Assembly: GCA_963817955.1 (NCBI GenBank)
Contig: CAWFQK010000004.1
Span: 1,647,991 to 1,711,990, forward strand
Source: an uncultured Gemmatimonadaceae bacterium
GTDB lineage: Bacteria > Gemmatimonadota > Gemmatimonadetes > Gemmatimonadales > Gemmatimonadaceae
DNA length: 64,000 bases
Direction: 5' to 3'
Under the pieces are notes generated by a model that saw nothing but the letters and a program-made list of their open reading frames with translations, was not told the DNA's origin and searched no databases. Every line of letters starts with the position of its first letter. Position 1 is the first letter of the stretch. This document shows, piece after piece, positions 13,646 to 40,816 of the stretch. The position numbers and the translations under genes were made by a program.

Positions 13646-13726
13646 CTGCACGTCGAATTCTTGCGTCTCTGTTCGCTAGAAGATATGACTGGGCTGGTGA
13701 CGTTCGGCTGACCTCGTGAGGTCTCT

Positions 13727-13777: not shown

Positions 13778-13852
13778 CGGGGTGAACGCGGGGCGGTCGG
13801 TGTGGCACGACGCGGGTGGCTGTAGCCCAGCCGCTTCGTGCGGCCGCAACAG

Positions 13853-16440: not shown

Positions 16441-16467
16441 AGGTTTCCAAGCCGCCGGGCGCGGTTC

Positions 16468-19570: not shown

Positions 19571-22087
19571 TCAATCGGCGCGCAGCGCCACGACTGGGTC
19601 GACGCTCGACGCCCGCCGCGCGGGAACCCAGCTCGCGGCAAGGGTGGCGAGACCAAGCAGCCCGACAATCGCGCAGTACGTGACCGGGTCCGTTGGAGAG
19701 AGATCGAAGAGCAAACCCTGCAAGACACGCGTGCACGCGAGGGCGCCGGCGAGTCCGAGTATCACACCGACCGATACCAGCGTGACTCCCTCGCTCACGA
19801 CGAGACGCCGCACGCTGTGCTGGTCGGCGCCAAGCGCCATGCGAATCCCTATCTCGCGGGTCCGCGCCGTGACGACGAGGGCCATCACGCCATAGATCCC
19901 GACGACGGCGAGCGAGAGCGCTGTCGCGGCGAAGAGACCGAGCAGCACAGCGCTGAACCGCGCTTGGGCCGTGGCGCCCGCAACCAGCGCCGTCATTGGT
20001 TGGATGTCGTAGACGGGATACTGTGGCGCCAACTCGGCGATCGCGCGCCGAGCACTCGCGGCCAGGGCGACCGGGTCACCGCCGACGCGGACGAAGATCA
20101 TCATTTGCGAGGCTGGGGACTGTGCATACGGGAGGTAGACTTCAGGCTTCGCCAGCGAATCGATGAACTGTCGTACATCGCCTACGATGCCGATCACTTG
20201 CGCCTGCGCGCCGTTGATGCCGACGCGCTTCCCGAGTGGATTCTCGCTCGGCCAGAAGGCGCGCGCCGCGGCTTCGTTGATCAGCGCGACGTTCGGGGCG
20301 CCGGCTCGGTCCGTACTCGCAAAAAACCGTCCGCGCTCGAGCGGAGTTAGTACGGTCGCAAACCACGTTGGCGTGGCCCAACTCACACGAACGCCCTGCC
20401 TGGGCGCACCGTCGACTCTGGCTCGGTCGGGGAATTCGATAGGCGTACGGAAGCACCCGCCCCCGAGCGGCGGACAACTGTTGAGAGATGCGTCAACAAC
20501 CCCGGGGAGCGCACGCAGTCGATCGAGCAACTCAGTATAGAACGCGGGCATCGATTGCTGTTCGCCACCGGAAGGAATCGTCAGGCGCAACGTGAGCACG
20601 TGCTCGGCGCGGAAGCCGCGGTCGACCGTCATCAGCTTGCCAAAGCTACGGATCAGGAGGCCCGATCCGGCCAGCAGAATCATTGCCAGCGCAACCTCGA
20701 CGACGACGAGCATGCGTCGGCCGCGGGCGCCGCGTTGCCGTACGTCGCTGTCGCCGGACATGGCTTTCATGTTCTCTGATACCGACGCTCCCGTCGCCTG
20801 CATCGCGGGAACGAGTCCGAATACAATGCCCACGACCAATGTGATCGCCAGGCTGAAGGTCAACGCGGTCCAGTCGACGTGAACTCCCGAAAACGTTACG
20901 GCGCCAAGCCCGTTCAACGTGTCGTTGCCCCTCGAAGCCATCACGTCCGGATCGACAGTGCTGAGAGCACGCGCGCCGATCCAGGCAACGGCGATTCCCG
21001 CGACGCCCCCGAGTACGGCCAGCAGGATGCTCTCCGTGAGCAATAGACGGACGATGCGCCGCCGCGTGCCGCCGAGCGCGAGACGGACGGCAATTTCGCG
21101 ACGGCGCAGGCTCGACCGCCCCAGCAAGAGATTGGCAACGTTGACGCAGGCGATGAGCAGCACACACGCGACGGCACCAAACACAACGAGGAGCGCTCGG
21201 CGAATGATCGGGGACACGCGAATGTCATCCAGCGGTCGTGCGGTGGCGCCCCAGTGGCTACCGTCCGAGTCCTGTTCGTTGAACGCATCGCGCACACGCA
21301 CGCCGAGCAGCTTGACCGCGGTAACCGCCGCGGCGACGCCGATGCCGGGCTTCCGCCGCGCCACCATGAAGAACTCGTGCGATTGCGACTCGCCCAGCTC
21401 GTCCGCGGTACGGGTGGTGATCGGAATGAACACATCGGCTTGTCCACTCAGCCCGCGAAAGTCGCGGGGCGCGACGCCCACAACCGCATACTGCTTGCGA
21501 TCGCCGGCGCCGTTCCTCCACGAGGCGCCAAGGTCCGAGACGTCGACCGTGTTGCCAACGATGCTCGGATCGCCGCCGTACCGCCGCTGCCACAATGAGT
21601 ACGAGATGATGACCTGACGCTCGGCATCGGCATGCGCATCGACGCTGGGATCGAAGTCATGGCCCCAGCTTGGCGCGAGACCGAGCGTGCGAAGGTAGCG
21701 ACCGCCGACGAACTCACCTTGGATCAGCTCGACCTAGCCGCTCGTGATGGTGAATTGTTGAGGCGTGTACAGCGAGATGTTGGAGAATACCGATTGCGCG
21801 TCTCGAAACACCGCGTACTTGGGATAGGACCACACCATGTCATCACGGGCCCTGATACCGCCCTGCGCCGGCGATGTGAGGGACACCGTCATGAGCTGCT
21901 CGGGTGTGGCATACGGCAAGCGCCGCAGCAAGAGTGCATTCACAGCGCTGAAGATCGCCGTGGTCCCGCCGATGCCGATGGCGAGCGTGAGCACGGCGAC
22001 CGCTGTGAATCCGGGCCGGCGCGCGAAGCCGCGCGCGGCGTAGCGGAGGTCCTGTATCAGAGTATCGAAATACTCGGTGACACGCAT
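19571..22087 (-). pseudogene. ADOP-type duplicated ABC permease interrupted by one in-frame TAG
   Basis: ORFs 21734..22087 and 19571..21595 share a frame; ..FTITSG*VELIQGEFVGGRYLRTLG.. reads through TAG at 21734-21736. Confidence 0.85.
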
Positions 22088-22322: not shown

Positions 22323-22697
22323 ATGAGCGACATCTACTTCCCGCCGCGCGAGCTCGCCGTGATGAGCGTTCTCTGGCGACTCGGCTCCGCCACCGTTGCG
22401 GACGTGCGCGACGCACTCGAGGAAGACCTCGCGTATACCTCCGTTCTCTCGGCATTGCAGACGCTCGAAGAGAAGGATTATGTGCGCCACGAGGCCGAAG
22501 GCCGCGCGTATCGCTACTTCCCCACCGTGGAAGCCGAGCGTGCAGGCGGCAGCGCGCTCGCGAGGATCCGCGACGCCATCTTCCACGGCTCGGCGGAGCG
22601 CATGTTCGCGCAGATGGTCTCGGACAAGAAGCTCGGCCGCAAGGAGCTGGAGCAGATGCGCCGGCTGCTCGCCGAACGCCTCGGAGAGAGAAAGTGA
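22323..22697 (+). CDS. BlaI/MecI/CopY-family repressor
   Basis: RELAVMSVLWRLGSATVADV..LAYTSVLSALQTLEEKDYV..GRAYRYFP..FHGS. Confidence 0.92.
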   Translation: MSDIYFPPRELAVMSVLWRLGSATVADVRDALEEDLAYTSVLSALQTLEEKDYVRHEAEGRAYRYFPTVEAERAGGSALARIRDAIFHGSAERMFAQMVSDKKLGRKELEQMRRLLAERLGERK

Positions 22698-23718
22698 TCG
22701 GGCTCGTGGTGTACGGTTTGGCCGTCGCGCTGTTGATGATTGCCGGCGCGCGCGCCGCCGAGTGGCTCGTGCGCGGCGCGGGCCTGCCGGTTCGATGGGT
22801 GTGGGTCGGCGCGATGGTCGCCACACTCGCGTTGTCGTTCGCGGCCGTGAGCCGCGCCGTCCGCTCGACTGCCGCTCTGCCAACGTATGTCGTTGCCGAT
22901 GCTTCCGCACGGCAGGTGACCGAGAGTCTGACGCAGCCGACGCTGGGAAGCCGCCTCGCGGCGACCGTTCTCGCGGCGCAGCACTCGTTGAATGATGCAC
23001 TGGCGCGCGCGACGGCCATCGCACGGCGCGACCTGTCGCCGACAATCGTCAGCGCAGCGATCGCACTCTGGGTGCTCTCCGGCGTCATCCTGCTGATGAC
23101 CTTCGCCATGGTACAGCGCCGCATGCGCCGCGTGCGGGGCGCATGGCCGGTCGCCGATATCGCCGGTGCGCGGGTGCGTATCTCGCCGACGATCGGACCG
23201 CTGGTCGCCGGCGTGGTTCGTCCGGAGATTGTGGTCCCCCGTTGGCTGCTCGGCCGTGCAGCGAACGAGCAGCGGATGGCCATCACGCACGAGGCTGAGC
23301 ATGTGCGCGCGCAATCGCCCCGGCAGACATCGGCCGCCTCGAGGTCAACAAGAGCGCGGCGTCTGGTCACGACACGATTCGGATGTGGACGAAACGCGCT
23401 GCTGCGGCCGCTCAGATCGTCCCCGAGGGCGAGCGGCGCGTCGCTTACACCATCGACGGCAAGGCAGGCAGCGACACCGTGTGGCTGAACACGCCACGAA
23501 TGCCCTATCTCATAAAGGGGATACCGGCGATCGAGAACGCGCCCGTGATGTTCCTCGATGGCGTGCGCGTCAAGCCGACGGTCCTCCAATCGATCGATCG
23601 CACCCAGATCGAGAGCATCGACGTCGTCAAAGGCCCGTCCGCCGTGGAGCTCTATGGTCCGGATGCAGCGGCAGGCGCGATCGTCATTCGTACGAAGAAG
23701 GGCGCGAACAGGGATTGA
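22694..23718 (+). pseudogene. BlaR1-like M56 peptidase fused to a TonB-plug-like domain, internally deleted and out of frame
   Basis: GPLVAGVVRPEIVVPRW and HEAEH, then M56 similarity ends at about 23310; another frame gives VMFLDGV..IESIDVVKGPSAVELYG..GAIVIRTKKG*. Confidence 0.75.
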
Positions 23719-25724: not shown

Positions 25725-28182
25725 TCAGCGCACCGTGCCGACGCACGTGGCGGCCGTGTTCAATCCCACCAGTTTCGACAGCACCAGCAGGGCGTCCACC
25801 GCGGTCACGTCACCGTCACAGTTCGCGTCCCCGTTCGGATAACGAATCGCGCCGGCCGGCAGCGGCAATCCGACGACCGCCGAGAGGATCGCCTGCGCAT
25901 CGAGCGCCGACAGCGTGCTCGAGTTGGTGATGTTGCCCCGCAGCGCCGCCGTGCTGGTGCCCAGTGAGAAGACGCCCCGTCCGTACGTCCCTGCGATCAG
26001 GCGCCCGCGCGCGCCGTCGTAGACGAGATCGGTGATCGGCACGTTGGGCAGCGATGCGGCGAGCGGGGTCCAGGAGGTCGTCCCGAGCGGCAGTGCGAAC
26101 ACACCGACATCGGTCGCCACGTCGATCTCGCGACTGCCCCGTTGCATCACGATGCTGCTCACGGGTGCATTCGGGAGGTTGTACGAGATGTCGGTCCACG
26201 AGCCGCCGGTATTGACGGTCTTGAACACGTGTCCGGAGCCGTATCCGCTCACCGTGAGCCACGCCGTCTTGGGGTCGAGGGGATCGACCACGATCCGTGT
26301 GATGGCGCGGTACGGCAGTCCGCTGGTGATCGTGGTCCACGTGACGCCGAGATTCGTGGTGATGGCCACCGTGCCGTCGCCTGCTCCCGTGTAGATGGTG
26401 TTCGTATCGGCCGGCGAGATGGCGACGGTGGCGATGCCGCCCCCGCCCGAGGTGAGGTCGGGGCTGATCGCCGTCCAGGCGTCGCCGCGATTCGCGGAGC
26501 GGTACAGCCGGTACGTACCGTAATACAGCACGTTAGTGTTCAGCGGATCCATCAGGGTCGGCAGGATCCATTCGGACCGGTCGCCCGTGTTGATGCCACT
26601 ATTCTTGAATGACCAATAGCTGCTCCCCGGATCGCGCCGACCGACGCCGTGCGCGGCCGAACCCGAGGCGAACGTGAGGTACGCCGTGGTGCCAGCGCGG
26701 TCGTACAATGAGTATCCGCCATCGCCGCCCTGCACGGACGTCCATGCGGCCGCACCCGTCCACTCGGCCGTGCCGTTGTCCTGCGCGCCGCCGAGAATGC
26801 TCGACGGGTTCACCGGGTTCACTCCGATGCCGGCGTAGAACTGCGTGATGTTGAGATTGGTGTTGAGGTGCGTCCAGGTGACGCCGCCATCGACGGAGCG
26901 GTAGACGCCGCCGTCGTTGCCCGAATAGATGGTGGTCGGCGTTTGCGGATCGAAGGCGATCGCGTGGTGATCGACGTGGACAGTGCTCCCGCCCACGTCG
27001 GTGAACGTCGCGCCGGAGTTCGTGGACTTGTAGAACGAGAAACCGCCGAAGTAGATCGTCGTAGGTGTCGTGGGGTCCACGGCAAGGTACATGTCGTACC
27101 AGCATTGCGAGTTGCAACTCGCACCGGTCGCGGCGACGCTGTTCCACGTGGTGCCATTGTCCGGGCTCGTCCACACCCCGAGCAGTTTAGCGGTGTTGAC
27201 GTTCTCAACGGTGGCGTACAGCACGACGGGCGCCACCGCCGTCACGGCGAGGCTGATGCGCCCGACGTTGCTGGTGGGGAATCCGGCGAGGTGGCTCCAC
27301 GTGAGGCCGTTGTCAACGGACTTGAAACCCCGTTGCCAGCGCTGTTCGAGAGTAGATGCTTCCAACCGCCGCGTACAGCTCCCCCGCGTTCGGCGTGGCG
27401 ATGAGGTCGGTGATGGTGCCACTGAGCACCCGCGTCCACGTCGTGCCGCTGTCGGGCGACCGGTACACGCCCGTCGCGCTGGCCGCGAAGACGATCGTTG
27501 TGCTCGTCGAGCCGGCCGTCGCCCGGTCGACCAGCATCTTGCTGATGGTGGCCGAGTAACTGCTGGCCACGAAGATGCTGCCGCCGCGCTGGCTCCAGGT
27601 CGTGCCACCATCCGTGGACACTAGGATGCCACACCCCTGGTAGCCCCCGAGGTTGAAGTTCTCCTCACCGGTGCCGGCGTACACGATCTGCGGATTCACG
27701 GGATCGAGCGCCACGCTTCCCATGGCCAACCCGCATTCATTGTCCGTGAGCGGCGTCCACGACGTGCCGCCGTTCGTCGTCTTCCACACGCCGCCCGACG
27801 CCGCACCGATGTAAATGATCTGGGAGTTCGTCGGGTGAACCGCGATGCTGTTGATCCGGCCGGCGTAGTTCTGGCTCGCACTCACCGTGATCGGCGCCGG
27901 TCCAAGCGCGCTCCACGATTGCGACGACACGAACAACGAGAGCGATGCTGCGCTGCGCCCGCTGCGCGTCTGCGGCCACTGCACCTGCATTTGTGTCAGG
28001 GCTGCCTGAAGCGCGCCGTCGGGCACGCGATCGAGCGGGAAGGCGCGTTGCCCGTAGAAGGCATCGTAGCGCGCGCGCTGGTTGTCCTGCTGTGCGCCCA
28101 CGCGTGCGGGGATCGGGGCGAGCGCCAGCGCGCTGGCGAGCGTGCCGAGCCACATGCGGCGCACACCGTGAGCTGCGGTCAT
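25725..28182 (-). CDS. secreted BNR/Asp-box (VPS10/GH74-like) beta-propeller protein with C-terminal dockerin; frameshifted near 27325-27352
   Basis: About 10 S/T-x-D/N-x-G-x-T/S-W boxes across ORFs 27313..28212 and 25725..27611; HVDHHAI, GGAQDNG, GGDGG; tail GNITNSSTLSALDAQAIL..GDANCDGDVTAVDALLVL. ATG 28182 overlaps the upstream TGA. Confidence 0.8.
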
Positions 28183-29066
28183 CGTGGCGACTCCAGAGTT
28201 AGCGCGATGCAATTGCTCGTGCCCGCGATAGTGCGGACGCAGATGTCGAATTTGCCGGCGCCGATGCGTTGTGGCGGCACTTCTCCCTTGGCGGGGAATG
28301 CGTCAGGCAACAGGAAGCGCAACGTCTTGCCGTCGTCCGACCGCAGCTCGGCCATCGCCACGCCGCCGAACAACACCACGTTGCCCTCCGGTCGGAAGCC
28401 CGAGCCGTGGATGATGACCGGCACGAGACCGCCCGGAACGATCGTGGCGCGCGCCGGGTCCAGCCGGTCGACGCGGGGCACCCCCGGCGCATCGGGGGCG
28501 GCCGGAGTCACTGGCCGGTGCACCGTATCGCGCCGTTCACCGATCCCCACGACGTCGGTGTGTTCAACGAGCGTGGCACCGCTCGTCGAGTTCAACTCCA
28601 GGAGTCGCAGCGTCATCGTCCCCGGCGCGGCGCTCGCCGCCCTGCCGTGGACGGGCGCGAAGTCGAGCTGCAGCAACGACCCCGATGTGAATCCACCCGA
28701 CGCGGCGCCCGCGATGTCGGCGCGACCGGCGCGGGTGAGGTTCGCGACTTCAGCTCCCATGGGCGCGGGAACGAAGTGCACGGCGAGAACGAACGTCGAG
28801 TCGTATTCGATGGCGACGTGAAAGCTGCCGAGACGAACCCCGGGAGCGGGGTGCAGGCAGAGGCGCACCGTGCGCACCGTATCACGCACCGCTGCGGGCG
28901 CGAGATCCAGCGAGAGGCGTGACGCCGTGGACGCGGGATGAGCGGCCGCACAAGCGGGAGTGCCCTGCGCCATCGCGCCAGAGGCCGCCATGGCGGCGAG
29001 CATCACGCCGGCCCACCATGGACACACCTGCCGGACCGACGACGCCCGCTCGGCATCGGACGTCAC
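28179..29066 (-). CDS. secreted protein, cohesin-like domain plus IPT/TIG-like domain
   Basis: Signal-like AMA-Q; LGSFHVAIEYDSTFV..IAGAASGGFTSGSLLQLDF; PRVDRLDP..VIIHGSGF..NVVLFGG..LRFLLP..VRTIAGTSN. Confidence 0.65.
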   Translation of the reverse strand: MTSDAERASSVRQVCPWWAGVMLAAMAASGAMAQGTPACAAAHPASTASRLSLDLAPAAVRDTVRTVRLCLHPAPGVRLGSFHVAIEYDSTFVLAVHFVPAPMGAEVANLTRAGRADIAGAASGGFTSGSLLQLDFAPVHGRAASAAPGTMTLRLLELNSTSGATLVEHTDVVGIGERRDTVHRPVTPAAPDAPGVPRVDRLDPARATIVPGGLVPVIIHGSGFRPEGNVVLFGGVAMAELRSDDGKTLRFLLPDAFPAKGEVPPQRIGAGKFDICVRTIAGTSNCIALTLESPR

Positions 29067-29578
29067 CGCAAGCTACGGTCGAGGCGCAAGGCGGCGAGCG
29101 GCCGGAGCTTCGCGATGCGGCTCGTAAACCGGACCGTATTCAGCTCGCCGATCGTCAGCGCGAGTGTCGGCTTGGTGATCGCGACGCGCGCACGAAAGTG
29201 CAGAACGAACAGCCGGCTGTCGGGAATTCCAGTCGCACTGGCGCCGGCAATCACCACCACGCTGTCGAGCGCATTCACCGCTCGCATGACGCCAGGCACG
29301 GCATCGTCCGACACGAACTCGAGTTGGGCCGCGTCGTATCGCAGCCGCGCGACGAAGCTCGCTACCTGCTCGCCGCCGCCGGCCGCGTCGACATTGCCGC
29401 TCACGACCAGGCTGGCACCCGCCGGCAGCGCGCTGTCCGACACGACCACGTAACTCAGTCGCTCCGGTGTCGCGATCGCCGCGGACGCCTTCGGAGCGGT
29501 CGGTACGATGTCATCCCTGCACGCCGCACAGACCAGCGTCACGAGGAGCACTCGCCCGATCGTCGACATATGTGTCAT
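29063..29578 (-). CDS. lipoprotein with cohesin-like domain
   Basis: GGAGGGAGG RBS before ATG 29578 (alternative ATG 29605 overlaps the upstream stop); lipobox CAAC; VASFVARLRYDAAQLEFVS..IAGASATG..LFVLHFRA. Confidence 0.65.
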   Translation of the reverse strand: MTHMSTIGRVLLVTLVCAACRDDIVPTAPKASAAIATPERLSYVVVSDSALPAGASLVVSGNVDAAGGGEQVASFVARLRYDAAQLEFVSDDAVPGVMRAVNALDSVVVIAGASATGIPDSRLFVLHFRARVAITKPTLALTIGELNTVRFTSRIAKLRPLAALRLDRSLR

Positions 29579-29601
29579 GCCCTCCCTCCGTTCGCGTCTC
29601 A

Positions 29602-32448
29602 TCATCGGATCACCACGGGATGCGAGATGGCCAGTGTCGTACCCAACACGCTGGTGAACGTCGTCGCCGCCGTGAGCTCCGTGGCGAGCAGCGTCAGGAA
29701 ACCGGCTCGTCCCGTCGTCGAGGCGGCACGGAAGGTAATCCGGCGCAACTGGACGGTGCCCGCGAAGCCCGACGACGATGCGGCGGTGATCAAGAGCGAG
29801 CCGTTCGCCGCGTTCGCCGTACCGACCGTCGCACCGACGCTGCTCGTACCCTCGGCATCGCTCACGTAGATGAGCTGCAGAGGATCCCACGTCACCTCGA
29901 CCGTTGCCGCGCCGAGACGCGTGGCGCTGCGCATGTCGGCGATCACCGTGAGCGTGAACGTCGTGTCGTGCTTGATGTCGAATCGCGACAGGTCGGTGCG
30001 CAGGACCGGACCTCCGGCGGTCGCGATCGCGAAGAGGACCGAGTCCTTGGCCGCGACGTTGGCGGTAGATGTGGCGACGAGCATCGTCTGCCCGCGCGCG
30101 ATCGGCGTCACGACGCCCGCACTGCTCACCGATGCCGCGGAGGCCTCCCGGCTCACGTACGTGAGCGCCGGCGACGACATCGACCGGCCGTATTGGTTCA
30201 CGGCCGTGAAGAGTCCGGCTGTCGCATAGGCGGTGTCGCTCACCACCACGTCGCCGAGGGTCCACGTCACGGACGTGGGCGTGCCGACCGCATTCGTGAC
30301 GTTCGCGCTGCCCGTGATGCTGTTGGCGTCGAGCGCCGTCACCGCGTACGTCACGCCGATACTCGTTCCCGTGGCGTACGAAGTGCTCGCGACACCCGAC
30401 GCCGACGTCTGCGACGTCGCGGGTGTGAACACGCCGCCGCCAGCGGCCGACCCTACGCTCCACGTGATGGTGCGACCGAGCAACGACACAAAGTTACCGT
30501 TGGCGTCGACGAGCTGCGCGGTCACTGAGACGCTCGCTCCTGCCACCGGTGTGCTCGTCGTGGTCCCTACGACATACCGCGCGGGCGCTCCCGGGACTGT
30601 CGTGAGCGAGAGGCTTCCGCTCACCGACGCGTTGTCGGTCGCCGTAATCTGGTAGACCCCGATGGCGGTTCCCGTCGTCAACGACACCGTCGCGAGCCCG
30701 TTCGCGTCCGTCGTGGACTGCGCGGACGCGAACGTGCCACCCGATCCGGTCTTCGTCCATGTCACGACGCGCCCAGCGAGCCGCACCGCACCGCCAGACA
30801 CGTTCGCCAGCTGTGCACTGATTGTCGCGGCCGTCCCCGCCACCGGCTGGACGGTGTTCGACGTGACGACGTACCGGGTCGCGGTGTTCGGGACGAACGT
30901 GATCGCCGTGCCAGGCAGCGCGACGCCGTTGAGCGTCGCGTTCACGGTCGCCGACGACGGTGCGTTCGGCGCGGTGAGCGTCGCCGTGTAGGTGCCATCG
31001 TGGTTGTCGGTCGTCGTCGACACTGTGCTAGTGGTCGCCGAGATCACGACGATCCCGCCGGATACATGCACGACATTGGTGTTGGCATCGCGCAGCTGCA
31101 CGGTGATCATCACCGTAGAGAGACCGTCGGCCGCGAGCACGGTAACACTCGGCTGCACGGTCGAGCGCGCGGCCGACGCCGGGCCGGCGACTGACGTGAA
31201 CGTGGCGCTCGTCCCGGTGAGACCGCCGCCGTCGGTGGCGGTGACGGTGTACGGTGACACGAGTACGGCGGTGGTGTACGACACCGTCGCGACGCCCGTG
31301 GCTCCGGTCGTCGACGTTGGCGTCGCGAACGTGCCCGCCGCGCCCGTCGCGCTCCATGTGACGACAGTACCGGCAGTCGACACCGCGTTCCCGTTCGCGT
31401 CGGCCAGTTGGGCGGTGATGGTCACCGCTGCTCCCGCCACGGGCGACGTCGTGCTCGGCGTCACCGTGTACTTCGCGGCCGGCCCCGCCACCGACGTGAT
31501 CGCGGCGCTCGTTCCCGTAAGCGTGCTTGCGTCCCGGGCCGTGACCGTGCCGCTGCCGACCGTCTTAGGCGTGGTGTATTGCACGGACACTTGACCGCTG
31601 GCATCGGTGGTCGACGTCGGCGTCGCGAACGAACCACCGGCGCCTGTCGTGCTCCACGTGACGACGCGGCCCGCAGTCGCAACGTTGTTGCCGTTTGCAT
31701 CGACCACTTGCGCGGTGACGGTCACGGCGGCACCGGCGACCGGAGCGGTGCTGCTGAGCGACACCGTGTAGTTCGCCGGCGCGCCCGCCGTGACCGCGAA
31801 CGGCGCCGACGTGACCGTCGCCAGTCCCGTCGAGGAAAAGCTCAGTGTACGGCTGCCGGTGGTGCCGGCGATGCCGAGCGTCGTGAACGTCGCGACGCCG
31901 CCCGACGCGGAAACGGTGGTCGATCCGCTGAGCGTGCCACCTCCCGACGCGATGTCTGCGGTGACCGCGGTCGCGGCGCTGGTGAGATTACCACCAGCGT
32001 CACGAACTTCGATCGCCGGCTGCACACCGAACGACGCTCCGGCCGCGGCACCGGACGGTTGCGTGTTGATGAATAGGGTAGCCGGCGTGCCCTCGACGAC
32101 CGTGATTGCGGCGCTGGCCGAGGAGACGCCCGACACCGACGCCGTGATGTTGGTCGAGCCGATCAATGCCGCGGTGACGAGACCGGATGTATTGACGGAT
32201 GCGACCGTGGGTACCGAGGAGACCCACGTGAAGCTCTGTCCCGAAACGGGCGTGCCCGCCCCGTTGAACGCCGTCGCCGAGAGCTGCGACGTGGCGCCTC
32301 CCGCGAGCTGGACGGGACCCACCGGTGCGACCTCCACGCGCCGCACAGTGTTGTCGGGGGGAGTAGGTGCCAACGGCTCGCCGCTGCAACTCAGCACCAC
32401 GGCACCGAAAACCGCGACGGTGAGTGCACGGAGGTTCGCCGTCAGCAT
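29602..32448 (-). CDS. large Ig-like (Big_2/Big_1-invasin) repeat lipoprotein ending in a cohesin-like domain
   Basis: Lipobox VLSC; TWVSSVPTVASVNTSGLVTA (Big_2); four PVAGxxxxxxAQ..TW repeats; C-terminal FTLTVIADM..LGAATVEVTWDPLQLIYVS..AASSSGFAGTVQLRRITFRA. ORF open from 32472. Confidence 0.8.
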   Translation of the reverse strand: MLTANLRALTVAVFGAVVLSCSGEPLAPTPPDNTVRRVEVAPVGPVQLAGGATSQLSATAFNGAGTPVSGQSFTWVSSVPTVASVNTSGLVTAALIGSTNITASVSGVSSASAAITVVEGTPATLFINTQPSGAAAGASFGVQPAIEVRDAGGNLTSAATAVTADIASGGGTLSGSTTVSASGGVATFTTLGIAGTTGSRTLSFSSTGLATVTSAPFAVTAGAPANYTVSLSSTAPVAGAAVTVTAQVVDANGNNVATAGRVVTWSTTGAGGSFATPTSTTDASGQVSVQYTTPKTVGSGTVTARDASTLTGTSAAITSVAGPAAKYTVTPSTTSPVAGAAVTITAQLADANGNAVSTAGTVVTWSATGAAGTFATPTSTTGATGVATVSYTTAVLVSPYTVTATDGGGLTGTSATFTSVAGPASAARSTVQPSVTVLAADGLSTVMITVQLRDANTNVVHVSGGIVVISATTSTVSTTTDNHDGTYTATLTAPNAPSSATVNATLNGVALPGTAITFVPNTATRYVVTSNTVQPVAGTAATISAQLANVSGGAVRLAGRVVTWTKTGSGGTFASAQSTTDANGLATVSLTTGTAIGVYQITATDNASVSGSLSLTTVPGAPARYVVGTTTSTPVAGASVSVTAQLVDANGNFVSLLGRTITWSVGSAAGGGVFTPATSQTSASGVASTSYATGTSIGVTYAVTALDANSITGSANVTNAVGTPTSVTWTLGDVVVSDTAYATAGLFTAVNQYGRSMSSPALTYVSREASAASVSSAGVVTPIARGQTMLVATSTANVAAKDSVLFAIATAGGPVLRTDLSRFDIKHDTTFTLTVIADMRSATRLGAATVEVTWDPLQLIYVSDAEGTSSVGATVGTANAANGSLLITAASSSGFAGTVQLRRITFRAASTTGRAGFLTLLATELTAATTFTSVLGTTLAISHPVVIR

Positions 32449-32711
32449 CCGACGACGTCCTTCGCCCGTCAACGGCCAACCGCCGTCATAGGCCGGGAGA
32501 TCTCACGAACAACGGCGAGCCCGGCTCGACCGAATGACGGCATTCGACAATTGTGCACTGCGGGGACTCCAAGAGAGGGAGGTACTGCGCGCCCCCGGAC
32601 TGCTCGAGTTTGCGGTTGTCTTGGCGAGCGGTGACGAGCCTCATCATGCAATCACCCAGAACACGCCAACAGCCCCCGAGTGCCAGACCATTTAGCACAG
32701 AATTAGCATAA

Positions 32712-32740: not shown

Positions 32741-32791
32741 TAACGAATTTTCCTCGATTCGGCCTTGCGACTGTGCGAGACGCCTTGCGTA

Positions 32792-32891
32792 GACGCTCGA
32801 TGCTCGGCGCGCGGGGACCCAGCTCGCGGCAAGGGTGGCGAGGCCCAGCAGCGGTCCAATCGCGCAGTAGGTGACCGGGTCCGTTGGAGAG
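32792..32891 (-). pseudogene. 100-bp fragment of an ADOP permease 3' end
   Basis: 89/100 identical by manual alignment to 19601-19700, same orientation; encodes SPTDPVTYCAIGPLLGLATLAASWVPARRASSV. Confidence 0.85.
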
Positions 32892-33714: not shown

Positions 33715-34110
33715 TTACCGCCGTTTGGGCTGTTTGCGAGAACGAGCGACGTCTGGCTCGCGTGACCGCAGGGCCGCCTTCGCGATAGGTTTCGCCCACT
33801 CCGGGATGGAGTCGAGCGGCGCAACGTGCTCGACGTTGCCGCGCGTGGTGCGGAGCAGCAAGGTAGGCAGGGGCCGCAGCCCCGCGAGTGGAGGCGCCTC
33901 GCGCGTGTTGTCGAATACTTCGAGCGACGTGAGCAGCGGCAGGAGTTCGACGAGGTGCTGGCGGCTGCGGTCGTAACGCTCGCGGATCTTTGTCTCGGGG
34001 ATATCATATCCGCCGGCGGCCTCCACGGCCTGTGCCAGCACGCTGCTCTTGCCGGCGCCGTTCACGCCGGCGATGACATACAACCGCGCGCGTCGGTGAG
34101 AAGGTGTCAT
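33715..34110 (-). pseudogene. zeta-toxin-like P-loop kinase with large in-frame internal deletion
   Basis: VIAGVNGAGKSS is only about 10 aa from GGYDIPETKIRERY..VFDN; the intervening core is absent. Confidence 0.75.
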
Positions 34111-34147
34111 CGCTCGCACGCCGAACGGTCGCGTGCTGCGGCGCCCC

Positions 34148-34573
34148 TCATCCGCCGCGCGAACGCGATCGCCTTGCCGCAACGAGCGCCGCGCGCCCCA
34201 TGTCCTCGGGGGAAGTCGCGAAGCCGCGCGCGATGCCAGCCGTGGTCTCAGGGCGCTGCATCTCGCGCAACAGCGCGTCGAACTCAGCGCTGAGCGTGTC
34301 GAGCACGCGCGTGTCCCCTCGCGCCAGGGCCCGATAGCGGTCGACCGAGATCAACACGGCGCGTGGCACGTTGTGGCGGGTAATGACCACGACGTCATCT
34401 CCGGCCGCGCGGTCGAGCACTCGACCGAACTCGTTTTGCGCGTCGGTCGCTGAAATCTCGACTTCGGCGGCATCGGCGACCGGCCGATGGTTCACCGTAG
34501 CCGGCTCGGCCGCTTCGATTCGCGCGACAACTCGCTTTGCCCTCTTCATCGGCACCCGGATCCGTTTAGCCAT
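34148..34573 (-). CDS. Phd/YefM-family antitoxin
   Basis: ISATDAQNEFGRVLDRA..VVITRHNVPRAVLISVDRY; palindrome TTTAGC-N7-GCTAAA (34565-34583) spans the start codon. Confidence 0.88.
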   Translation of the reverse strand: MAKRIRVPMKRAKRVVARIEAAEPATVNHRPVADAAEVEISATDAQNEFGRVLDRAAGDDVVVITRHNVPRAVLISVDRYRALARGDTRVLDTLSAEFDALLREMQRPETTAGIARGFATSPEDMGRAALVAARRSRSRGG

Positions 34574-34615
34574 TATCGCTAAAACTACGGACGGCGCCGA
34601 ACTCCTCGCACGCTG

Positions 34616-34709
34616 CCATCGTGACGTGCTCCTTCGACCAGAGGAGACGATGGCATTGGTCTCGAACGAAGCCGTGTTCGACGCCTACGCCGTCACGCGG
34701 CTCTGGTAG
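34616..34709 (+). pseudogene. C-terminal relic of a VapC/PIN toxin
   Basis: HRD..EETMALVSNEAVFDAYAVTRLW* resembles the HRDPFDR..LVSxDxxFDxYxVxRLW VapC tail. Confidence 0.6.
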
Positions 34710-34730
34710 ACTGGGCGATCACTGTGTGTG

Positions 34731-35966
34731 TCAGGGGACCGGCAGGTGCGTCAAGGGGAGCGTCAGGCCGACATCGGGCAACACAGCCTCGATGATCCAC
34801 GCGCGAAAAAATGGATCGTCACAGGTGTAGCGGGCGCCGTCATGCACAAGGAGATCACGTCCCGTGAGGGTCGTCAGCGTCTTCGCCATGCGGCTCGTGG
34901 TACCGAGCGAGAAGCGCTGCAACACGGCGGACGTGGTCAGGCGGGCCTCGCCAGCCGCAACGGCGCGCAGACAGTTCTGCTGCAGGGCGGTCAGCGATTT
35001 CCAAGAGGCCTCGTATTGCGGCCGGCGTTCATCCACAATCCGACGGAGTGGCACGTCCAGAGCAGTGGGGCTGAGTTGCCCCGTGGGGCGCGCGACCTCG
35101 GCGGCTGTCTCCGCCAGCGTCCGCACGTCCCGGGTCCGCGGTCCAGCGAGCGCGATGAGGGCGCGCCCACAGCCCCGCGCGGTGATCCCCATCTGCGCGA
35201 ACCGATCCTCAATCCACGCAGCGAAGTGGTCCTCGGGCAGGGGCCCGATTTCGTAGCGTCGGGCGAGATTGTGCATGGGGCCGTGCTTCGGGTCGCTGAG
35301 AGCATTGATGAGTGCGCGATCCGAGCCCGCGAACACATACGACACGTGTCGATGCTGCTGGATGGCCGCCCGGACCTGCCGCATGGCGCTCACGCTCGGC
35401 GCCTCGGACGCCTCCCGCCCCAGGCGTTCGATCTCCTGGAACTCGTCGAGAATGACGCCCAAGTGGACCTTGTGTGCTTTCGCCTGCTCCTCCAGTGTGT
35501 CCAGCGCCGCGACGAGCCGCGTCCGCTGTTCATGGAGAGGCGCTTCACGGAACGACAGTGTGGGAATTGGAATGAGCGTGCCGTCCGACCGCGCGCTCAT
35601 CTCGAGCTTGAACTGCAACTGGTGGGCGAGGGCCGTGACCAACGTGCCCCACGATTGACCGAGCGCCGTCGCTGCTTCCGCCGCGAGCCGCGTCGTCATG
35701 TCCTCGATGGTCGTCGCGCTCCAGAGATCGAGGTAGAGCACCGGGGCTTTCTTTTTCTGATGCTGCAGGTCGTACTGGACGGCGCGCAGCAGGCTCGTCT
35801 TGCCGATGCGGCGCAGGCCCACGACGAGCAGGTGTCCGCCCGGCGTCTGGAGGGCCTGGGCGATCGCCCGGCGTTCCACCGCCCGGTCCGTGAAGTCGTC
35901 CCCCACGTGCGCGATACCAGCACCGGCGAACAGGTTGGGGGACACCAGGGAGCGACGGGATGCCAT
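34731..35966 (-). CDS. AAA+/archaeal-ATPase-like P-loop protein with probable C-terminal winged helix
   Basis: FTDR, GLRRIGKTSL (Walker A), ILDEFQ (Walker B), FAGS, DPFFRAW. ORF open from 36011. Confidence 0.85.
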   Translation of the reverse strand: MASRRSLVSPNLFAGAGIAHVGDDFTDRAVERRAIAQALQTPGGHLLVVGLRRIGKTSLLRAVQYDLQHQKKKAPVLYLDLWSATTIEDMTTRLAAEAATALGQSWGTLVTALAHQLQFKLEMSARSDGTLIPIPTLSFREAPLHEQRTRLVAALDTLEEQAKAHKVHLGVILDEFQEIERLGREASEAPSVSAMRQVRAAIQQHRHVSYVFAGSDRALINALSDPKHGPMHNLARRYEIGPLPEDHFAAWIEDRFAQMGITARGCGRALIALAGPRTRDVRTLAETAAEVARPTGQLSPTALDVPLRRIVDERRPQYEASWKSLTALQQNCLRAVAAGEARLTTSAVLQRFSLGTTSRMAKTLTTLTGRDLLVHDGARYTCDDPFFRAWIIEAVLPDVGLTLPLTHLPVP

Positions 35967-36153
35967 GAAGCCTCGGGGCCACAGAACCACCAACGAAGGG
36001 CGTAACGACACCCTAATCTAGTGCCTGAAAAGGCAGTGCGCAAAGAGGCCCTATGTAGGGCGCTCCAGGTCACTGCGCAACAGGGGGACGAGAGGACACG
36101 CGAGCGGCGTGACGTGGTAGCAGGATCTGGCGGAGCACCCGCGGCCGAATGGC

Positions 36154-36326
36154 GCCGCGGCGGTGTGGGCCGTGAAGCGACAGTTTCGCCGGGTAAAGAA
36201 CCATCGTCCTTTGCCCTTGCTCAAGCAGGCCCTTCAGAACAAACTCACCAACACGAAATCCGCCGCGGCGTAAGCCGCCTCACCGCGCGGTAGCGCCTGA
36301 AGGTCAACTGCTGGCGGGACAGTTCC
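36154..36326 (+). mobile_element. IS256-family relic (transposase C-terminus and right end)
   Basis: AAAVWAVKRQFRRVKNHRPLPLLKQAL..* (stop 36273), then AAGGTCAACTGCTGGCGGGACAGTTCC resembling an IS256-type end. Confidence 0.65.
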
Positions 36327-36349
36327 TCCTCGAAATCCGTGTAGAGTCA

Positions 36350-37288
36350 ATGCGCAAAGCCTTTGTCGGCGTCACCGATCAGGACTGGTACGAGTTCCTC
36401 AGTTACCGTCCTGATGTCCTGGAAGCCAACTTCTGGCAGCCGGGCGGCCGGACGCTGTTCAAGGCGCTCTCACCCGGAGACCTGTTTCTCTTCAAGTTGC
36501 ACAGCCCGAACAACTACATCGTCGGCGGAGGGTTCTTCGCCCACTCATCGCTGCTACCGGTATCGCTGGCGTGGGAGACTTTTGGCGCGTCAAACGGTGT
36601 TGCTTCGCTATCGGAGATGCGGCGCAGGATCGAGAAGTACCGGCGTGACCCTGCTCGGCAGGGTGACGATTACACAATCGGGAACACCATTCTCGAACAG
36701 GTATTCTTTTTCACGCGCGATGCGTGGATCCCCATGCCATCGGACTTCGCCCTGAACATCGTGAGTGGCAAGACGTACGACCTGGAGGTTGGAACGGGCC
36801 GCGATTTGTGGCTTGCCCTGGATGCGCGGCTCCAAGCCGGCGGCGCGACCTCGCCTCAGCGTAACGTCAGTGAAGGCGCAGTCGCGCGCATGTTCTCGGA
36901 TCCCGTGTTGGCGCGACGCCGACTTGGACAAGGCGCATTCCGGATTCTCGTGACGGACAACTACCAGCGGGAATGCGCCATCACCCGGGAGCATACACTG
37001 CCGGTGCTTCAAGCCGCGCACATACGGCCGGTCACTCAAGGGGGCGAGCACGCAGTGACGAACGGGCTCCTACTCCGGTCCGACGTCCACACGTTGTTCG
37101 ACCGCGGATACGCGACAATCACTCCGGACTTTCGCTTTCGCGTCAGCCCAAGACTCGGCTCAGATTGGCGCAACGGAAAGATCTATTACGAGCTCGATGG
37201 TAAGGAAATCCATCTCCCTACGGACGAATCATCTCGACCGGAAAGGTCGCTCCTGGAATGGCATTCCGACTCGGTGTTCCTGCGATGA
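36350..37288 (+). CDS. HNH endonuclease (putative restriction endonuclease)
   Basis: RLGQGAFR..NYQRECAIT..LQAAHIRP..NGLLLRSDVHTLFDRG..LEWH (HNH_2 type), with a distinct N-terminal domain. Confidence 0.88.
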   Translation: MRKAFVGVTDQDWYEFLSYRPDVLEANFWQPGGRTLFKALSPGDLFLFKLHSPNNYIVGGGFFAHSSLLPVSLAWETFGASNGVASLSEMRRRIEKYRRDPARQGDDYTIGNTILEQVFFFTRDAWIPMPSDFALNIVSGKTYDLEVGTGRDLWLALDARLQAGGATSPQRNVSEGAVARMFSDPVLARRRLGQGAFRILVTDNYQRECAITREHTLPVLQAAHIRPVTQGGEHAVTNGLLLRSDVHTLFDRGYATITPDFRFRVSPRLGSDWRNGKIYYELDGKEIHLPTDESSRPERSLLEWHSDSVFLR

Positions 37289-37656
37289 GCGCCACACCAG
37301 ACCGGTTGGCGAAGGTACAAGAGCGCCTGAAACAATTCGTAGCTGAGCGGCAGTGGGCACAGTTTCACGACCCCAAGAATCTCGCGATGGCGGTTGCGAG
37401 CGAAACAGGTGAGCTCGTAGCCGAGTTGAGATGGGTCTCGAGCGACAATGCCGACGACTTCGCCGCGATCCCGGAGCATCGGATCAAGCTCGAACACGAA
37501 GCGGCCGACGTGGCGATTGCACTCTTGTTGTTCTGCGATAGGATTGGCGTCGACTTGCTTTCAGCGATCGACCGAAAGATCGACATCAACGCGGCAAATT
37601 ATCCGGTCCAGTTGTCCGCAGGTACGGCAGAGCGACCGCAGGTGCGAAGGTCGTGA
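37285..37656 (+). CDS. MazG-like nucleotide pyrophosphohydrolase (DCTPP1/RS21-C6-like)
   Basis: FVAERQWAQFHDPKNLAMAVASETGEL..EAADV..KIDINAANYP; ATGA overlap with HNH. Confidence 0.9.
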   Translation: MSATPDRLAKVQERLKQFVAERQWAQFHDPKNLAMAVASETGELVAELRWVSSDNADDFAAIPEHRIKLEHEAADVAIALLLFCDRIGVDLLSAIDRKIDINAANYPVQLSAGTAERPQVRRS

Positions 37657-37672
37657 TGCGAGCTTTCGCCTG

Positions 37673-40600
37673 ATGAGTCTTCCACGCGGCCTGTACGACC
37701 TTGTCGTCACACAAGCACTCGCGCGTTCGTTCGACCAGATCGCTCCAGATGCGTTCGACGTCCGTAATCTCACGGATGACGAGGCCCCCGACCGGTTTAT
37801 CGATGCGCTCGCGGCCCAACTCAAGGCGATCCTCGCCGACTTTGCACGCGGTGAGCCGGAGCAGGCGGTTGCCCAGCTAGAGCTGATCAACGGTCTACTG
37901 AGCCATGTGCGCGAGGCGCATCCCAGTGTCGGCGCCCTAATCGAGCCGCTGGCGGCGCCGCCTCAGATTCTCCGCGCCGTCCGAAGCGCGGCCGACGCGC
38001 AGCCGATCGCGCCAGAGACTGGCCTTGCCACACCATGGCTGTTTACGGCTGGTCGTGGCTCTCCGTCGCTCCTTGCGGAGCTTCGCCGCGAAGCAATGGC
38101 CTGCGATCAAATCGATATTCTCATCAGCTTCATCACGGTGTCTGGTGTTCGCAAGCTGATTGACATCCTGCGCGCGGCAACCGCTGCTGACGCATCAGGC
38201 AAAGGCAGAGCGCGCATTCGTGTACTCACGACCACGTACACGGGTGCCACGGAGATCGGCGCCCTGGATGAACTTGCGCACCTGAACGGCTGCCAAGTCA
38301 AAGTCTCACTCGACGGTCGCCGCACGCGGCTCCACGCGAAGGCCTGGATTTTTCACCGGCGTTCGGGTTTCGGTTCGGCCTATGTAGGAAGCGCCAACCT
38401 CTCGGGCGCTGCGCTCATGGGCGGCCTCGAGTGGACTGTGAAGTTCACGGAGCGCGGGCAGAGTGTTCTCTATGATCGCGCGAAAGCGCACTTCGACACG
38501 CTCTGGCTGGACGACGAGTTCACGACGTACTCGCCGGACGATCCAGCGAGCAGAGCAGCTGTTGCCGAGGCGCTCGGACGTGAGGGACATGAAGGCACGA
38601 GAGTGTTGCCGCTGTATTTCGACATTCAGCCAAAACCTTATCAGCGTGACATGCTCGAGCAGCTCGCACGTGAGCGCGAACATGGCCGTACGCGGAACCT
38701 GCTGGTCGCCGCTACCGGCACGGGGAAGACGGTCGTTGCTGCTTTGGACTATCGGGAAACATGCTCGCGTCTCGGCCACCGGCCTCGCCTGCTGTTCGTA
38801 GCGCACCGCGCGCAAATCCTCCGACAAGCGCTGCGCACATATCGAGAAGCCTTGCGCGACCATTCCTTCGGCGAATTGCTCACGGGTGGGGTCACGCCAC
38901 TGCAACACGAGCATCTATTCGCATCCATCGATACTCTGGCCTCGCGTGATCTCGTAGCGCGACTCGGGCCCGATTACTGGCATACTGTCGTGATCGACGA
39001 ATGCCATCGGCTCGCCGCCGACCGGTTTGACCGGTTGGCCACGGCGATTCGGCCGGCAGAACTGTTGGGTCTCACTGCGACGCCGGAACGTTCTGACGGC
39101 AAATCCATCGAACGCTACTTCACGTCGCGACCAGACGGGTCACCAGCAGTCGAGCTCCGATTGTGGGATGCTCTGGACATGCAACTGCTCTCGCCATTCG
39201 AGTACTACGGCTGCGATGACGACACGGACTTTTCGGACGTTCCGTGGAATCGTCCTGGCGAAGTCGCCGCCGTCGATCTGTTGGTCAAGAGCAACCGTGC
39301 ACGGGCGAAGATCGTCATCGACGAGTGGCGCCGGCTATCGGGCAACCCTGTCGCTGGCAAAGCGCTCGTGTTCTGTGTCTCTGTTGCGCACGCCGAGTTC
39401 ATGGCGCGGCAGTTCAACGAGGCGGGATTGCCGGCGCTTTGCATCACCGGTGACACCCCAAAGATCGACCAAGTGCGCGCGCCGAAGCGGCTCGCGGCTG
39501 GCGAGGTATGCGCGCTAGTGACGGTGGACCTGTACAACGAAGGAGTCGATATACCCGGCGTCGACACCTTGCTCCTATTGCGGCCGACACAAAGCGCTCT
39601 GCTGTTTCAGCAGCAGATTGGCCGAGGACTTCGTCTATTCCCGGGCAAAGAAAGTTGCCTTGTGCTCGACTTCGTCGGGCAGCAGCGCGTTGACTTCCGC
39701 TTCGATCGCCTGCTCTCTGGCATAACTGGGTTGACACGCCATCAACTGATCGACGCAGTGGAGCATGGCTTCAGCGGTTTGCCGCCTGGCTGTCACATCC
39801 AATTGCAGCATCAGACGCGTCAGCAGGTGCTTCGTAGTCTCAGAACTCTGGTTCAGCAGAACTGGAGACGTCTTGCCGCCGAGGTACGTAGTTATGCTAC
39901 CGTGCGGCGCACGCGCGACGTCAAACTCGGCGAGTTCCTGCACGACCAGCGAATTCCGATTGAGGATGTCTATCGTTCCAGTGCGCCAAGCGGCTGGACG
40001 ACACTGAAACGAGCTGCGGGTCTGCTGCTTGGCAGCGCCCCGGAGGGCGAGGCAGAGCTCTCACGCCGATTTGGAGATCTGCTTCACCTCGACGATCCGG
40101 CTCAACTTGAGTTGATTCGTCGAGTCGCCGACGTGCGCGCGGACTTCAGCCCGACGTCCGGGACCGAGCGGTTACGCGCACAGATGCTGACCTATCAGCT
40201 AGACAGTGGGCGCCAGCCAGTGCCTTACGCCGACATGGTGAGACGCGTTGCGGAGAGACCCCATTGCGCGGAGGAGCTTGGTGAGCTCGCCGCAGTGCTC
40301 TCATCTCGTTCCCGCTTGGATGAACGGGCGGTGCCGCACATGGAGGACGTTCCGCTTCAGCTACACGGCGCTTACCGGATTCGCGAGATCCTGAGTGCCG
40401 TCGGGCACCTCACCGAGAACCGCCGCGCGCCGTTTCAAGCCGGTGTGCTACCCCTGAAGGGTCGGAAGACGGAATTGCTGTTCGTCACGCTCGACAAGAG
40501 CGAAGGCTTTCACGATCGGATTGCATATCATGACTATGCCGTGAGTTGCAGCCACTTTCACTGGCAAACGCAGAACACTGCCGGGCCAAATACGAATTCT

Positions 40601-40816
40601 GGTCGGCGGTATTTGGAAAGTGTCGAGAACGGCTGGCGTTTTCAGCTGTTCGTGCGGATGACGAAATCTGATCCATATCGCGTCTGCGGCCCGGTACGTC
40701 TCGACAACCCGGACGACATCTCGGGTGACCGGCCGATGAGCATCACTTGGACGATGGAGGTTCCGCTTCCACCAAGACTGTTTGGCGAATTCAGTGTGTT
40801 GCGTGGTCAAGGCTGA
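37673..40816 (+). CDS. PLD-nuclease / SF2 helicase / DUF3427-like protein (SauUSI-like architecture)
   Basis: LHAKAWIF..VGSANLS, ATGTGKT, DECH, GLTATPER, QQIGRGLR, C-terminal LFVTLDK..YHDYAVS..FHWQTQN. Confidence 0.88.
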   Translation: MSLPRGLYDLVVTQALARSFDQIAPDAFDVRNLTDDEAPDRFIDALAAQLKAILADFARGEPEQAVAQLELINGLLSHVREAHPSVGALIEPLAAPPQILRAVRSAADAQPIAPETGLATPWLFTAGRGSPSLLAELRREAMACDQIDILISFITVSGVRKLIDILRAATAADASGKGRARIRVLTTTYTGATEIGALDELAHLNGCQVKVSLDGRRTRLHAKAWIFHRRSGFGSAYVGSANLSGAALMGGLEWTVKFTERGQSVLYDRAKAHFDTLWLDDEFTTYSPDDPASRAAVAEALGREGHEGTRVLPLYFDIQPKPYQRDMLEQLAREREHGRTRNLLVAATGTGKTVVAALDYRETCSRLGHRPRLLFVAHRAQILRQALRTYREALRDHSFGELLTGGVTPLQHEHLFASIDTLASRDLVARLGPDYWHTVVIDECHRLAADRFDRLATAIRPAELLGLTATPERSDGKSIERYFTSRPDGSPAVELRLWDALDMQLLSPFEYYGCDDDTDFSDVPWNRPGEVAAVDLLVKSNRARAKIVIDEWRRLSGNPVAGKALVFCVSVAHAEFMARQFNEAGLPALCITGDTPKIDQVRAPKRLAAGEVCALVTVDLYNEGVDIPGVDTLLLLRPTQSALLFQQQIGRGLRLFPGKESCLVLDFVGQQRVDFRFDRLLSGITGLTRHQLIDAVEHGFSGLPPGCHIQLQHQTRQQVLRSLRTLVQQNWRRLAAEVRSYATVRRTRDVKLGEFLHDQRIPIEDVYRSSAPSGWTTLKRAAGLLLGSAPEGEAELSRRFGDLLHLDDPAQLELIRRVADVRADFSPTSGTERLRAQMLTYQLDSGRQPVPYADMVRRVAERPHCAEELGELAAVLSSRSRLDERAVPHMEDVPLQLHGAYRIREILSAVGHLTENRRAPFQAGVLPLKGRKTELLFVTLDKSEGFHDRIAYHDYAVSCSHFHWQTQNTAGPNTNSGRRYLESVENGWRFQLFVRMTKSDPYRVCGPVRLDNPDDISGDRPMSITWTMEVPLPPRLFGEFSVLRGQG

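Follow-up and report, generated by a model that had tools for sequence, protein, structure and literature searches.

Does an operon of an uncultured Gemmatimonadaceae bacterium hold a secreted protein on the cell through a cohesin and a dockerin, and if so on how many posts? The question is raised by four genes within a 64,000-nucleotide stretch of contig CAWFQK010000004.1 (assembly GCA_963817955.1, positions 1,647,991 to 1,711,990), referred to here in its full length as the window. The original prediction, made from the sequence, read them as an Ig-repeat stalk lipoprotein (gene 1), a small lipoprotein (gene 2), a secreted protein with an added IPT/TIG-like domain (gene 3) and a BNR propeller ending in a dockerin (gene 4), and proposed that a beta-sandwich shared by the first three is a cohesin. 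The fold, the profile matches and the gene order in relatives support a non-cellulosomal cohesin–dockerin operon, and we conclude that a conserved, lipoprotein-anchored cassette is real, with binding within it predicted. The reading we favour, at a probability of roughly 0.62, is a one-cargo tethering cassette in which the propeller would dock through its dockerin on lipid-anchored cohesins, chiefly the class B domain of the small lipoprotein, with the stalk as a second, long-reach post. The readings to which we give probabilities here, this one and its rivals, are partly compatible with one another, and their total is not one.

Cohesin-fold domains and a dockerin module

Gene 1, predicted as a 950-residue Ig-repeat lipoprotein carrying the domain at its tip, has this architecture. 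Behind its lipobox (VLSC21) lie repeats matching Invasin_D3 (E 3e-26), Big_1 (E 1e-20) and Big_2 (E 3e-5), which by eye make up a stalk of about eight Ig-like domains and ~790 residues, followed by a C-terminal beta-sandwich of about 137 residues. The predicted model of this tip, with a predicted local distance difference test score (pLDDT) of 87.8, is a nine-stranded jelly-roll beta-sandwich of the kind that defines cohesins. Foldseek gave cohesins as its top matches at a template modelling (TM) score of about 0.75. In a VIA-align comparison with 48,161 chains, ranks 1–17 (Z 12–16) were all cohesins or cohesin-type modules, the best with Z 16.1, a root-mean-square deviation (rmsd) of 2.5 and 131 aligned residues, and adhesin and pilin domains ranked after them at Z 12 or less (10–12). 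The structural matches of the stalk tip are therefore cohesins and not generic Ig or carbohydrate-binding module folds. Against the sequences of the PDB, a profile of 15 stalk-tip sequences had cohesin entries as its top five matches (best E 0.0018).

The homology of the gene 2 and gene 3 domains to this beta-sandwich was confirmed with hhalign, which related the stalk tip to the gene 2 domain with a probability of 98.3 and the gene 2 domain to that of gene 3 with 93.8; the gene 3 domain was also matched by a broadened cohesin profile (E 1e-12). Profiles are needed here, single-sequence blastp among the three domains being barely significant (E 0.03). The hidden Markov model search proposed with the original prediction gave a divided answer. 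All window matches lie below the Pfam cut-offs: for PF00963 (24.1 bits) the stalk tip scores 19.7, the gene 2 domain 13.7 and gene 3 gives no match, and for PF00404 (22.9 bits) the dockerin scores 18.7. The wider families carry the assignments further, with PF00963 matched weakly by 13 of 15 gene 2 family members (E<0.1) and passed by one of three small homologues scanned (P0012, 25.4 bits), and with PF00404 matched by all 24 members of the dockerin family (E<0.01). Since the window scores are below cut-off, the assignments rest on profiles, fold and homologues, and the window domains are classed as cohesin-fold, outside PF00963 membership.

In a representative library the gene 2 profile reached 1768 cluster representatives at E<=0.001, some with 4–14 Pfam cohesin repeats, and at E<=1e-10 a set of 486 clusters that goes beyond small lipoproteins. 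Atlas gave one cluster (0.92) with PF00963 in 58% of its members and unnamed Gemmatimonadota clusters at 0.94–0.95, which serve as leads only. The same gene 2 profile found four proteins with 6–14 cohesin repeats (P0006, P0007, P0008 and P0127), and in two of these a C-terminal domain for type IX secretion is present; they are likely to be scaffoldin-like and of diderm origin. In two other loci (L065 and L067, about 12040–13790) a low-complexity insertion of ~100 residues sits in the middle of the cohesin domain of the small lipoprotein.

The duplicated loop–helix dockerin predicted at the end of the propeller is present in part. The tail is dockerin-like and its second loop is canonical (DANCDGDVTAVD); the first is degenerate (NITNSSTLSALD), with one of four scored D/N positions kept, so the window copy does not show the two canonical loops of a type I dockerin. 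Two Ca2+-binding loop–helix repeats are found at the level of the family, in which three to four D/N ligands are present in loop 1 of 22 of the 24 members and in loop 2 of all 24. The family profile matches 21 PDB sequences, each of them a dockerin or a cellulosome-type enzyme, with 2ccl_B in first place (E 4.5e-8). The window module is thus a dockerin-family member with one degenerate site. The same degenerate first loop is seen in an intact orthologue (L042), and because it is common to both it is a trait of the subclade and not a sign of decay. Two cysteines, C46 and C71, are invariant in 24/24 family members and, judged from this invariance, probably form a disulfide.

Conservation of the operon and two cohesin classes

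With the broadened profiles, the genome (94% complete) holds five cohesins in five proteins and two dockerins, all in two operons, each of which combines one dockerin with two or three single cohesins. The survey of other dockerin proteins suggested with the original prediction therefore ended with two, each in its own operon. The second operon (C2:895798–901122) is intact and encodes a stalk-cohesin, a small cohesin lipoprotein and a propeller-dockerin whose dockerin scores 44.5 bits against PF00404, over the cut-off. It has no TIG gene and lies directly behind a Mutator-family transposase. Neither hallmark of a cellulosome was found in this genome: there is no multi-cohesin scaffoldin, and in place of many dockerin-bearing plant-wall hydrolases there are two dockerins, both on BNR propellers. 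About a dozen larger BNR paralogues have no dockerin.

The gene 2 protein has matches in 12 of 40 relatives, and a search of genome contigs gave as its sole locus a 49% identical homologue in a metagenome-assembled genome of Longimicrobiales; this homologue and the Atlas clusters place the window in Gemmatimonadota. Among 400 other genomes of the phylum the gene 2 profile matched 49 and the dockerin profile 48; dockerin matches occur in 31 of the 49 cohesin-positive genomes against 17 of the 351 cohesin-negative ones, a comparison in which related genomes are not independent. Loci were collected around 57 gene 2 matches and around 10 further dockerin matches. Of the first set, 37 have a dockerin within the stretch fetched, seven lie at a contig edge, 11 are multi-cohesin clusters and two (L034 and L035) are false, being weak gene 2 matches that were rejected and counted as misses. 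In the second set a cohesin gene adjoins the dockerin gene at nine of the 10 loci, the tenth being near a contig end. Taken together there are 27 propeller-dockerin loci, including the paralogue on C2, and all 27 have cohesin genes directly upstream; the order stalk-cohesin, small cohesin lipoprotein, propeller-dockerin is kept at 25, the exceptions being one locus cut by a contig end and one with a stalk and a cohesin-TIG gene. The genes do, then, occur together in relatives. At 47 of 57 junctions in 21 loci the start codon overlaps the upstream stop, and the stalk, about 790 residues in the window, measures 192–626 residues in 16 relatives.

The pair is not confined to propellers. In other families of bacteria, at what we call type II loci (the propeller loci being type I), the same stalk and small lipoprotein precede other dockerin-tagged cargo: an M6 peptidase, a pre-peptidase C-terminal domain protein, beta-helix proteins and a protein that is subtilisin-like by motif. 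The beta-helix proteins carry an N-terminal cohesin–dockerin pair. A third type of locus (L060, L064, L066, L068–L071 and L073–L076) encodes lipoproteins with two to three cohesins and repeats that look PKD-like by eye, beside lipoproteins in which an N-terminal cohesin is combined with a divergent dockerin-like duplication and with a body labelled, again by eye, as beta-helix-like.

The stalk-tip domains (class A) and the small-lipoprotein domains (class B) differ. In a FastTree phylogeny of 109 domains, from which 18 loci were omitted as near-duplicates, fragments or type III clusters, they fall on opposite sides of a split with a support of 0.988; the cohesin domains of gene 3 fall on the B side with weak support. 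Its root is placed at the midpoint, and we read no sequence of events from it. Mean identities at 22 matched loci are 0.29 for A, 0.32 for B and 0.51 for the dockerin. At these loci class B has a series of conserved side chains, polar or small, that alternate along the strands (S 21/22, T 18, R 17, R 19, N 19, R 17, A 22, E 22, H 18), and the equivalent positions of class A are kept at 6–17/22. Across 124 homologues the class B positions S83, T85, R87, R108, N111, R118, A120 and E154 are kept at 60–99%. Aligned to the class A model, the conserved positions map to strands 3, 5, 6 and 8, and the dockerin-binding sheet of cohesins is formed by strands 8-3-6-5 (accessible passages of PMC5429695). 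Because of this strongly conserved polar face class B is favoured as the constant socket, and gene 2 would seem likely, from the residues it conserves, to be the main partner of the dockerin. Each of the 21 small cohesin proteins examined carries a lipobox-type cysteine (CAAC in gene 2 itself), as do 112 of 124 small homologues, and the lipobox pattern is present in 16 of 21 orthologous stalks.

In the favoured one-cargo cassette, the products of genes 1 and 2 would be exported by Sec and then lipidated, and the dockerin would fold with Ca2+ and a Cys–Cys bond and, as known dockerins do, attach to a cohesin through its 8-3-6-5 sheet. The small lipoprotein would be the main socket and the Ig stalk the second post, of longer reach, with the complex on the outside of the outer membrane and not in the periplasm. 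Several results weigh against this scheme. The first calcium loop of the window dockerin is degenerate, and no cohesin or dockerin score in the window reaches its Pfam cut-off. The gene 2 profile has no significant match among PDB sequences, the best cohesin standing at E 0.54. No dockerin was matched in 18 of the 49 cohesin-positive genomes, nor scored at the 11 multi-cohesin loci, two of which show divergent dockerin-like repeats by eye. The presence of cohesins at the loci is partly by construction, since most were chosen by a gene 2 match, and the class B face is drawn from alignment and residue alternation. Finally, no conserved exporter gene was found beside the type I loci.

Placement, cargo and alternative readings

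The last of these points bears on where the complex would sit. Surface display is a prediction: the type I loci share no dedicated exporter gene, and no conserved flanking gene was found there at all, except for a MacB/FtsX-like permease in five loci, the window included. An unlikely alternative, which accepts the pairing, is that the lipoproteins face inwards and hold the propeller within the envelope, for instance in the handling or sensing of envelope glycans. The cargo starts with a Sec-like signal and ends in the dockerin, with no recognised secretion tail, and PorV was not found in the genome with the query used; like the missing exporter, these points would suit a periplasmic complex. 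A search for SprA_N matched nothing anywhere, the controls included, and is thus uninformative. Against a periplasmic location, the stalks are of variable length and of Invasin/Big type, and proteases are among the cargoes, both typical of surface proteins. The type II loci, moreover, follow a CsgG/TPR lipoprotein and a putative barrel without a Pfam match; a homologous pair, far from the window at C2:925625–928076, is a candidate exporter in this genome, which also holds three secretins.

The same pair enters a bolder view, which we also regard as improbable: that two old, non-interchangeable cohesin classes working on one dockerin form a general plug-and-socket system of surface display in Gemmatimonadota, by which any cargo could be lifted off the outer membrane by tens of nanometres. 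The small lipoprotein would capture or ferry the disulfide-bonded dockerin and the Ig-stalk cohesin would take it over or clamp its second face, while the propeller, protease or beta-helix cargo might be exported through the CsgG-like lipoprotein and barrel that precede the type II loci. There are known dockerins whose two faces differ in specificity (PMC5141474).

The cargo gene is not intact as assembled. Gene 4 had been taken as one continuous gene; the frame opened by ATG 28182 stops at 27313 and the remainder lies in another frame. With tblastn all four intact orthologues used place the change between about 27340 and 27326. Contigs of close relatives (runs X2 and X4) have one additional base at 27326 and another at 27349, and remain in frame. 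Among the sequencing runs listed none is of RNA, and every share is at most 0.15. Frame changes were seen at six of 73 conserved loci tested in this assembly, gene 4 included, some of which may lie on the query side. As relatives are in frame and other frame changes occur in the assembly, an error of assembly is favoured and is probably the better explanation than a pseudogene. The alternative, which we consider quite unlikely and which concerns this locus and not the system, is that the window copy alone is decaying, its frameshift real and its cargo dead, with the C2 operon doing the job. The degenerate dockerin loop would fit this, as would the intact paralogous operon, and none of the identical short contigs of run X1 covers the frameshift zone; on the other side, besides the in-frame relatives and the other frame changes of the assembly, the degenerate loop is common to the intact orthologue and genes 1–3 are intact.

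What the cargo does was approached through that orthologue (L042), which is 58–59% identical to gene 4. Its predicted model (pLDDT 88.9) is a double beta-propeller for which Foldseek returned GH74 xyloglucanases (TM about 0.67), and the propeller family profile matches them at E about 1e-27. The identity is only 17–20%, and the position aligned with the first-blade TDIGG motif of GH74, the Asp of which is catalytic, has no Asp in any of 23 family members (the window has GAASGG). The family has an invariant set of its own, Q330, Y333, H373, D375, H377, D394, Y420, Q438-D439-N440 and D459 in L042 numbering, and its QDNG, a possible counterpart of the site of the second GH74 catalytic Asp, aligns locally, though weakly and without significance, with ADNG of 6p2k. 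With the first GH74 catalytic Asp missing, the cargo is not taken for a xyloglucanase; judged by its residues, it is GH74-like and probably binds a glycan or performs other chemistry in place of cutting xyloglucan.

The original prediction went further than one cargo and its anchor, in having a long stalk, a short membrane anchor and a soluble adaptor act as interchangeable posts that show the same propeller at different heights. This now seems improbable. What stands is that the window has three homologous cohesin-like domains for one dockerin; the length of the stalk varies, and a pair of similar repeats, the basis of dual binding in known type I dockerins (accessible passages of PMC12484212), is present in most dockerins of the family. 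A monovalent adaptor scaffoldin is defined as one cohesin plus one dockerin (accessible passages of PMC11557425), and no dockerin was found in gene 3. Across the 27 propeller-dockerin loci its position is occupied by a TIG-only protein at 18 and by a cohesin with TIG at three, and the gene was undetected at six; being without a dockerin and with its cohesin kept at just three loci, gene 3 is accessory and no core adaptor. Interchange between the other two posts is disfavoured by the split of classes A and B in the midpoint-rooted tree and by the absence from class A of the near-invariant polar positions of class B at matched loci. The three-post picture is not the conserved core.

In a further, very unlikely reading the cohesin-fold domains do not dock this dockerin but act as caps, structural or adhesive, or bind one another, and the genes stand together only because all encode envelope proteins. 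For this reading, the stalk tip is only 5–17% identical to solved cohesins, its fold also resembles adhesin and pilin domains, and at some cohesin loci no dockerin was scored. Against it, adhesins and pilins rank below cohesins by 3–5 Z units, the coupling to dockerins is tight whatever the cargo, and the only five cohesins and two dockerins of the genome all lie in two such operons.

Related systems and layout of the locus

Among the closest known systems are the anchoring of one enzyme by a single cohesin, as with OlpA/OlpC of Clostridium thermocellum (PDB 3ul4, 4dh2), and cohesin modules of C. perfringens (2vo8, 2w1n), which share the cohesin fold at Z 15–16. Their anchors are of the SLH or sortase kind; here anchoring likely falls to lipoproteins of a cell with two membranes, a single coupled operon encodes the cargo and two distinct cohesin classes, and the dockerin has an invariant Cys pair. 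In both, an anchor protein has a single cohesin and a cargo a single dockerin, and single-cohesin non-cellulosomal pairs have been noted before (accessible passages of PMC5429695).

Non-cellulosomal cohesin–dockerin systems have already been proposed in other diderm phyla. The 'planctosome' of Nemodlikiaceae (PMC6461901) and a cellulosome-like complex of Ca. Stygibacter (PMC8542988) are, in the accessible passages of both papers, predictions from genomes; they likewise concern diderm, non-cellulolytic bacteria and count peptidases among their cargoes. They differ in using a lamin-tail anchor with an adaptor, or a 3,755-residue multi-cohesin scaffoldin, where the loci described here have single-cohesin lipoproteins and one cargo per operon. 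Archaea also have single cohesins without a role in cellulose use, those of anaerobic methanotrophs (ANME) included, and the pairs are reported as verified binders; the stalk tip matches the Archaeoglobus cohesin 2xdh with Z 15.4 and rmsd 1.9. These belong to another domain of life with another envelope, and the accessible passages of the source for the archaeal systems (PMC9012536) describe no operon of Ig stalk and small lipoprotein.

In the literature searched, from which subscription papers are mostly absent, no cohesin–dockerin system was found for Gemmatimonadota, nor any account of cargo encoded together with a fixed pair of receptors of two classes; the main text of the genome survey PMC11557425 has no mention of 'Gemmatimonad'. 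Cohesin–dockerin docking is known chiefly from the cellulosomes of Gram-positive bacteria; if correct, the favoured cassette would add lipoprotein anchors, in a diderm phylum that is widespread and poorly characterised. The operon is small and gene order names the cognate partners, which would allow a direct test of diderm cohesin–dockerin binding and its location. It could also yield orthogonal, disulfide-stabilised pairs for surface display, and it points to an uncharacterised GH74-like propeller family with an invariant polar site of its own.

The features of the locus are collected in the table below.

Features of the cohesin–dockerin locus, in window coordinates
Feature	Positions	Strand	Remarks
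Gene 1, stalk lipoprotein	29602..32448	-	948 aa, ATG 32448, lipobox Cys21, ~8 Ig-like domains, C-terminal class A cohesin-fold domain
Cohesin A (stalk tip)	29605..30015	-	Predicted model and structural matches
Gene 2, small lipoprotein with one class B cohesin-like domain	29063..29605	-	Start may be ATG 29578; homology by hhalign
Gene 3, signal-like N-terminus, cohesin-like domain (about 28533-28931) and IPT/TIG-like domain	28179..29066	-	Accessory gene, without dockerin
Gene 4, 5' piece: signal-like N-terminus and first blades of BNR double beta-propeller	27313..28182	-	
Frameshift zone in gene 4	27326..27349		Frame change against intact orthologues; likely assembly error
Gene 4, 3' piece: remainder of GH74-like double propeller and C-terminal dockerin	25725..27329	-	
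Dockerin-like module	25728..25955	-	Loop 1 degenerate, loop 2 canonical, invariant Cys pair

The four tandem genes were found on the minus strand where they had been placed, from 32448 down to 25725. Export signals had been predicted on all of them and can be recognised as lipoboxes in genes 1 and 2 and as signal-like N-termini in genes 3 and 4; the IPT/TIG-like domain of gene 3 was recovered as a weak TIG match (E 0.026). The stop–start overlaps described for the operon hold at two of its junctions, a GTGA between genes 2 and 3 (29066–29063) and an ATGA between genes 3 and 4 (28182–28179). Between genes 1 and 2 an ATGA overlap is present at 29605, yet this junction is uncertain because ATG 29578 has a GGAGG six bases upstream and gives gene 2 a cleaner lipoprotein signal than ATG 29605.

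A 106-nucleotide direct repeat, 88% identical, occurs at 32786–32891 and 19595–19700. The copy at 32786–32891, close to the operon on its upstream side, is an orphaned 3' end of the MacB/FtsX-like permease gene found 13 kb downstream, and looks like what is left of a duplicated or displaced paralogue. The permease itself (19571–22087) appears as two open reading frames (21734–22087 and 19571–21595), possibly through another assembly frameshift. At 22323–23718 there are a BlaI-type repressor and its BlaR1/M56 peptidase partner, the gene of which seems to run on in another frame into a C-terminus that we take to be TonB-plug-like. Upstream of the operon, 33715–40816 resembles a defence island, with a Phd/YefM antitoxin, an AAA ATPase, an HNH endonuclease and a PLD-helicase-DUF3427 protein. 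A tandem repeat array with a 21-bp unit occupies 15936–16462.

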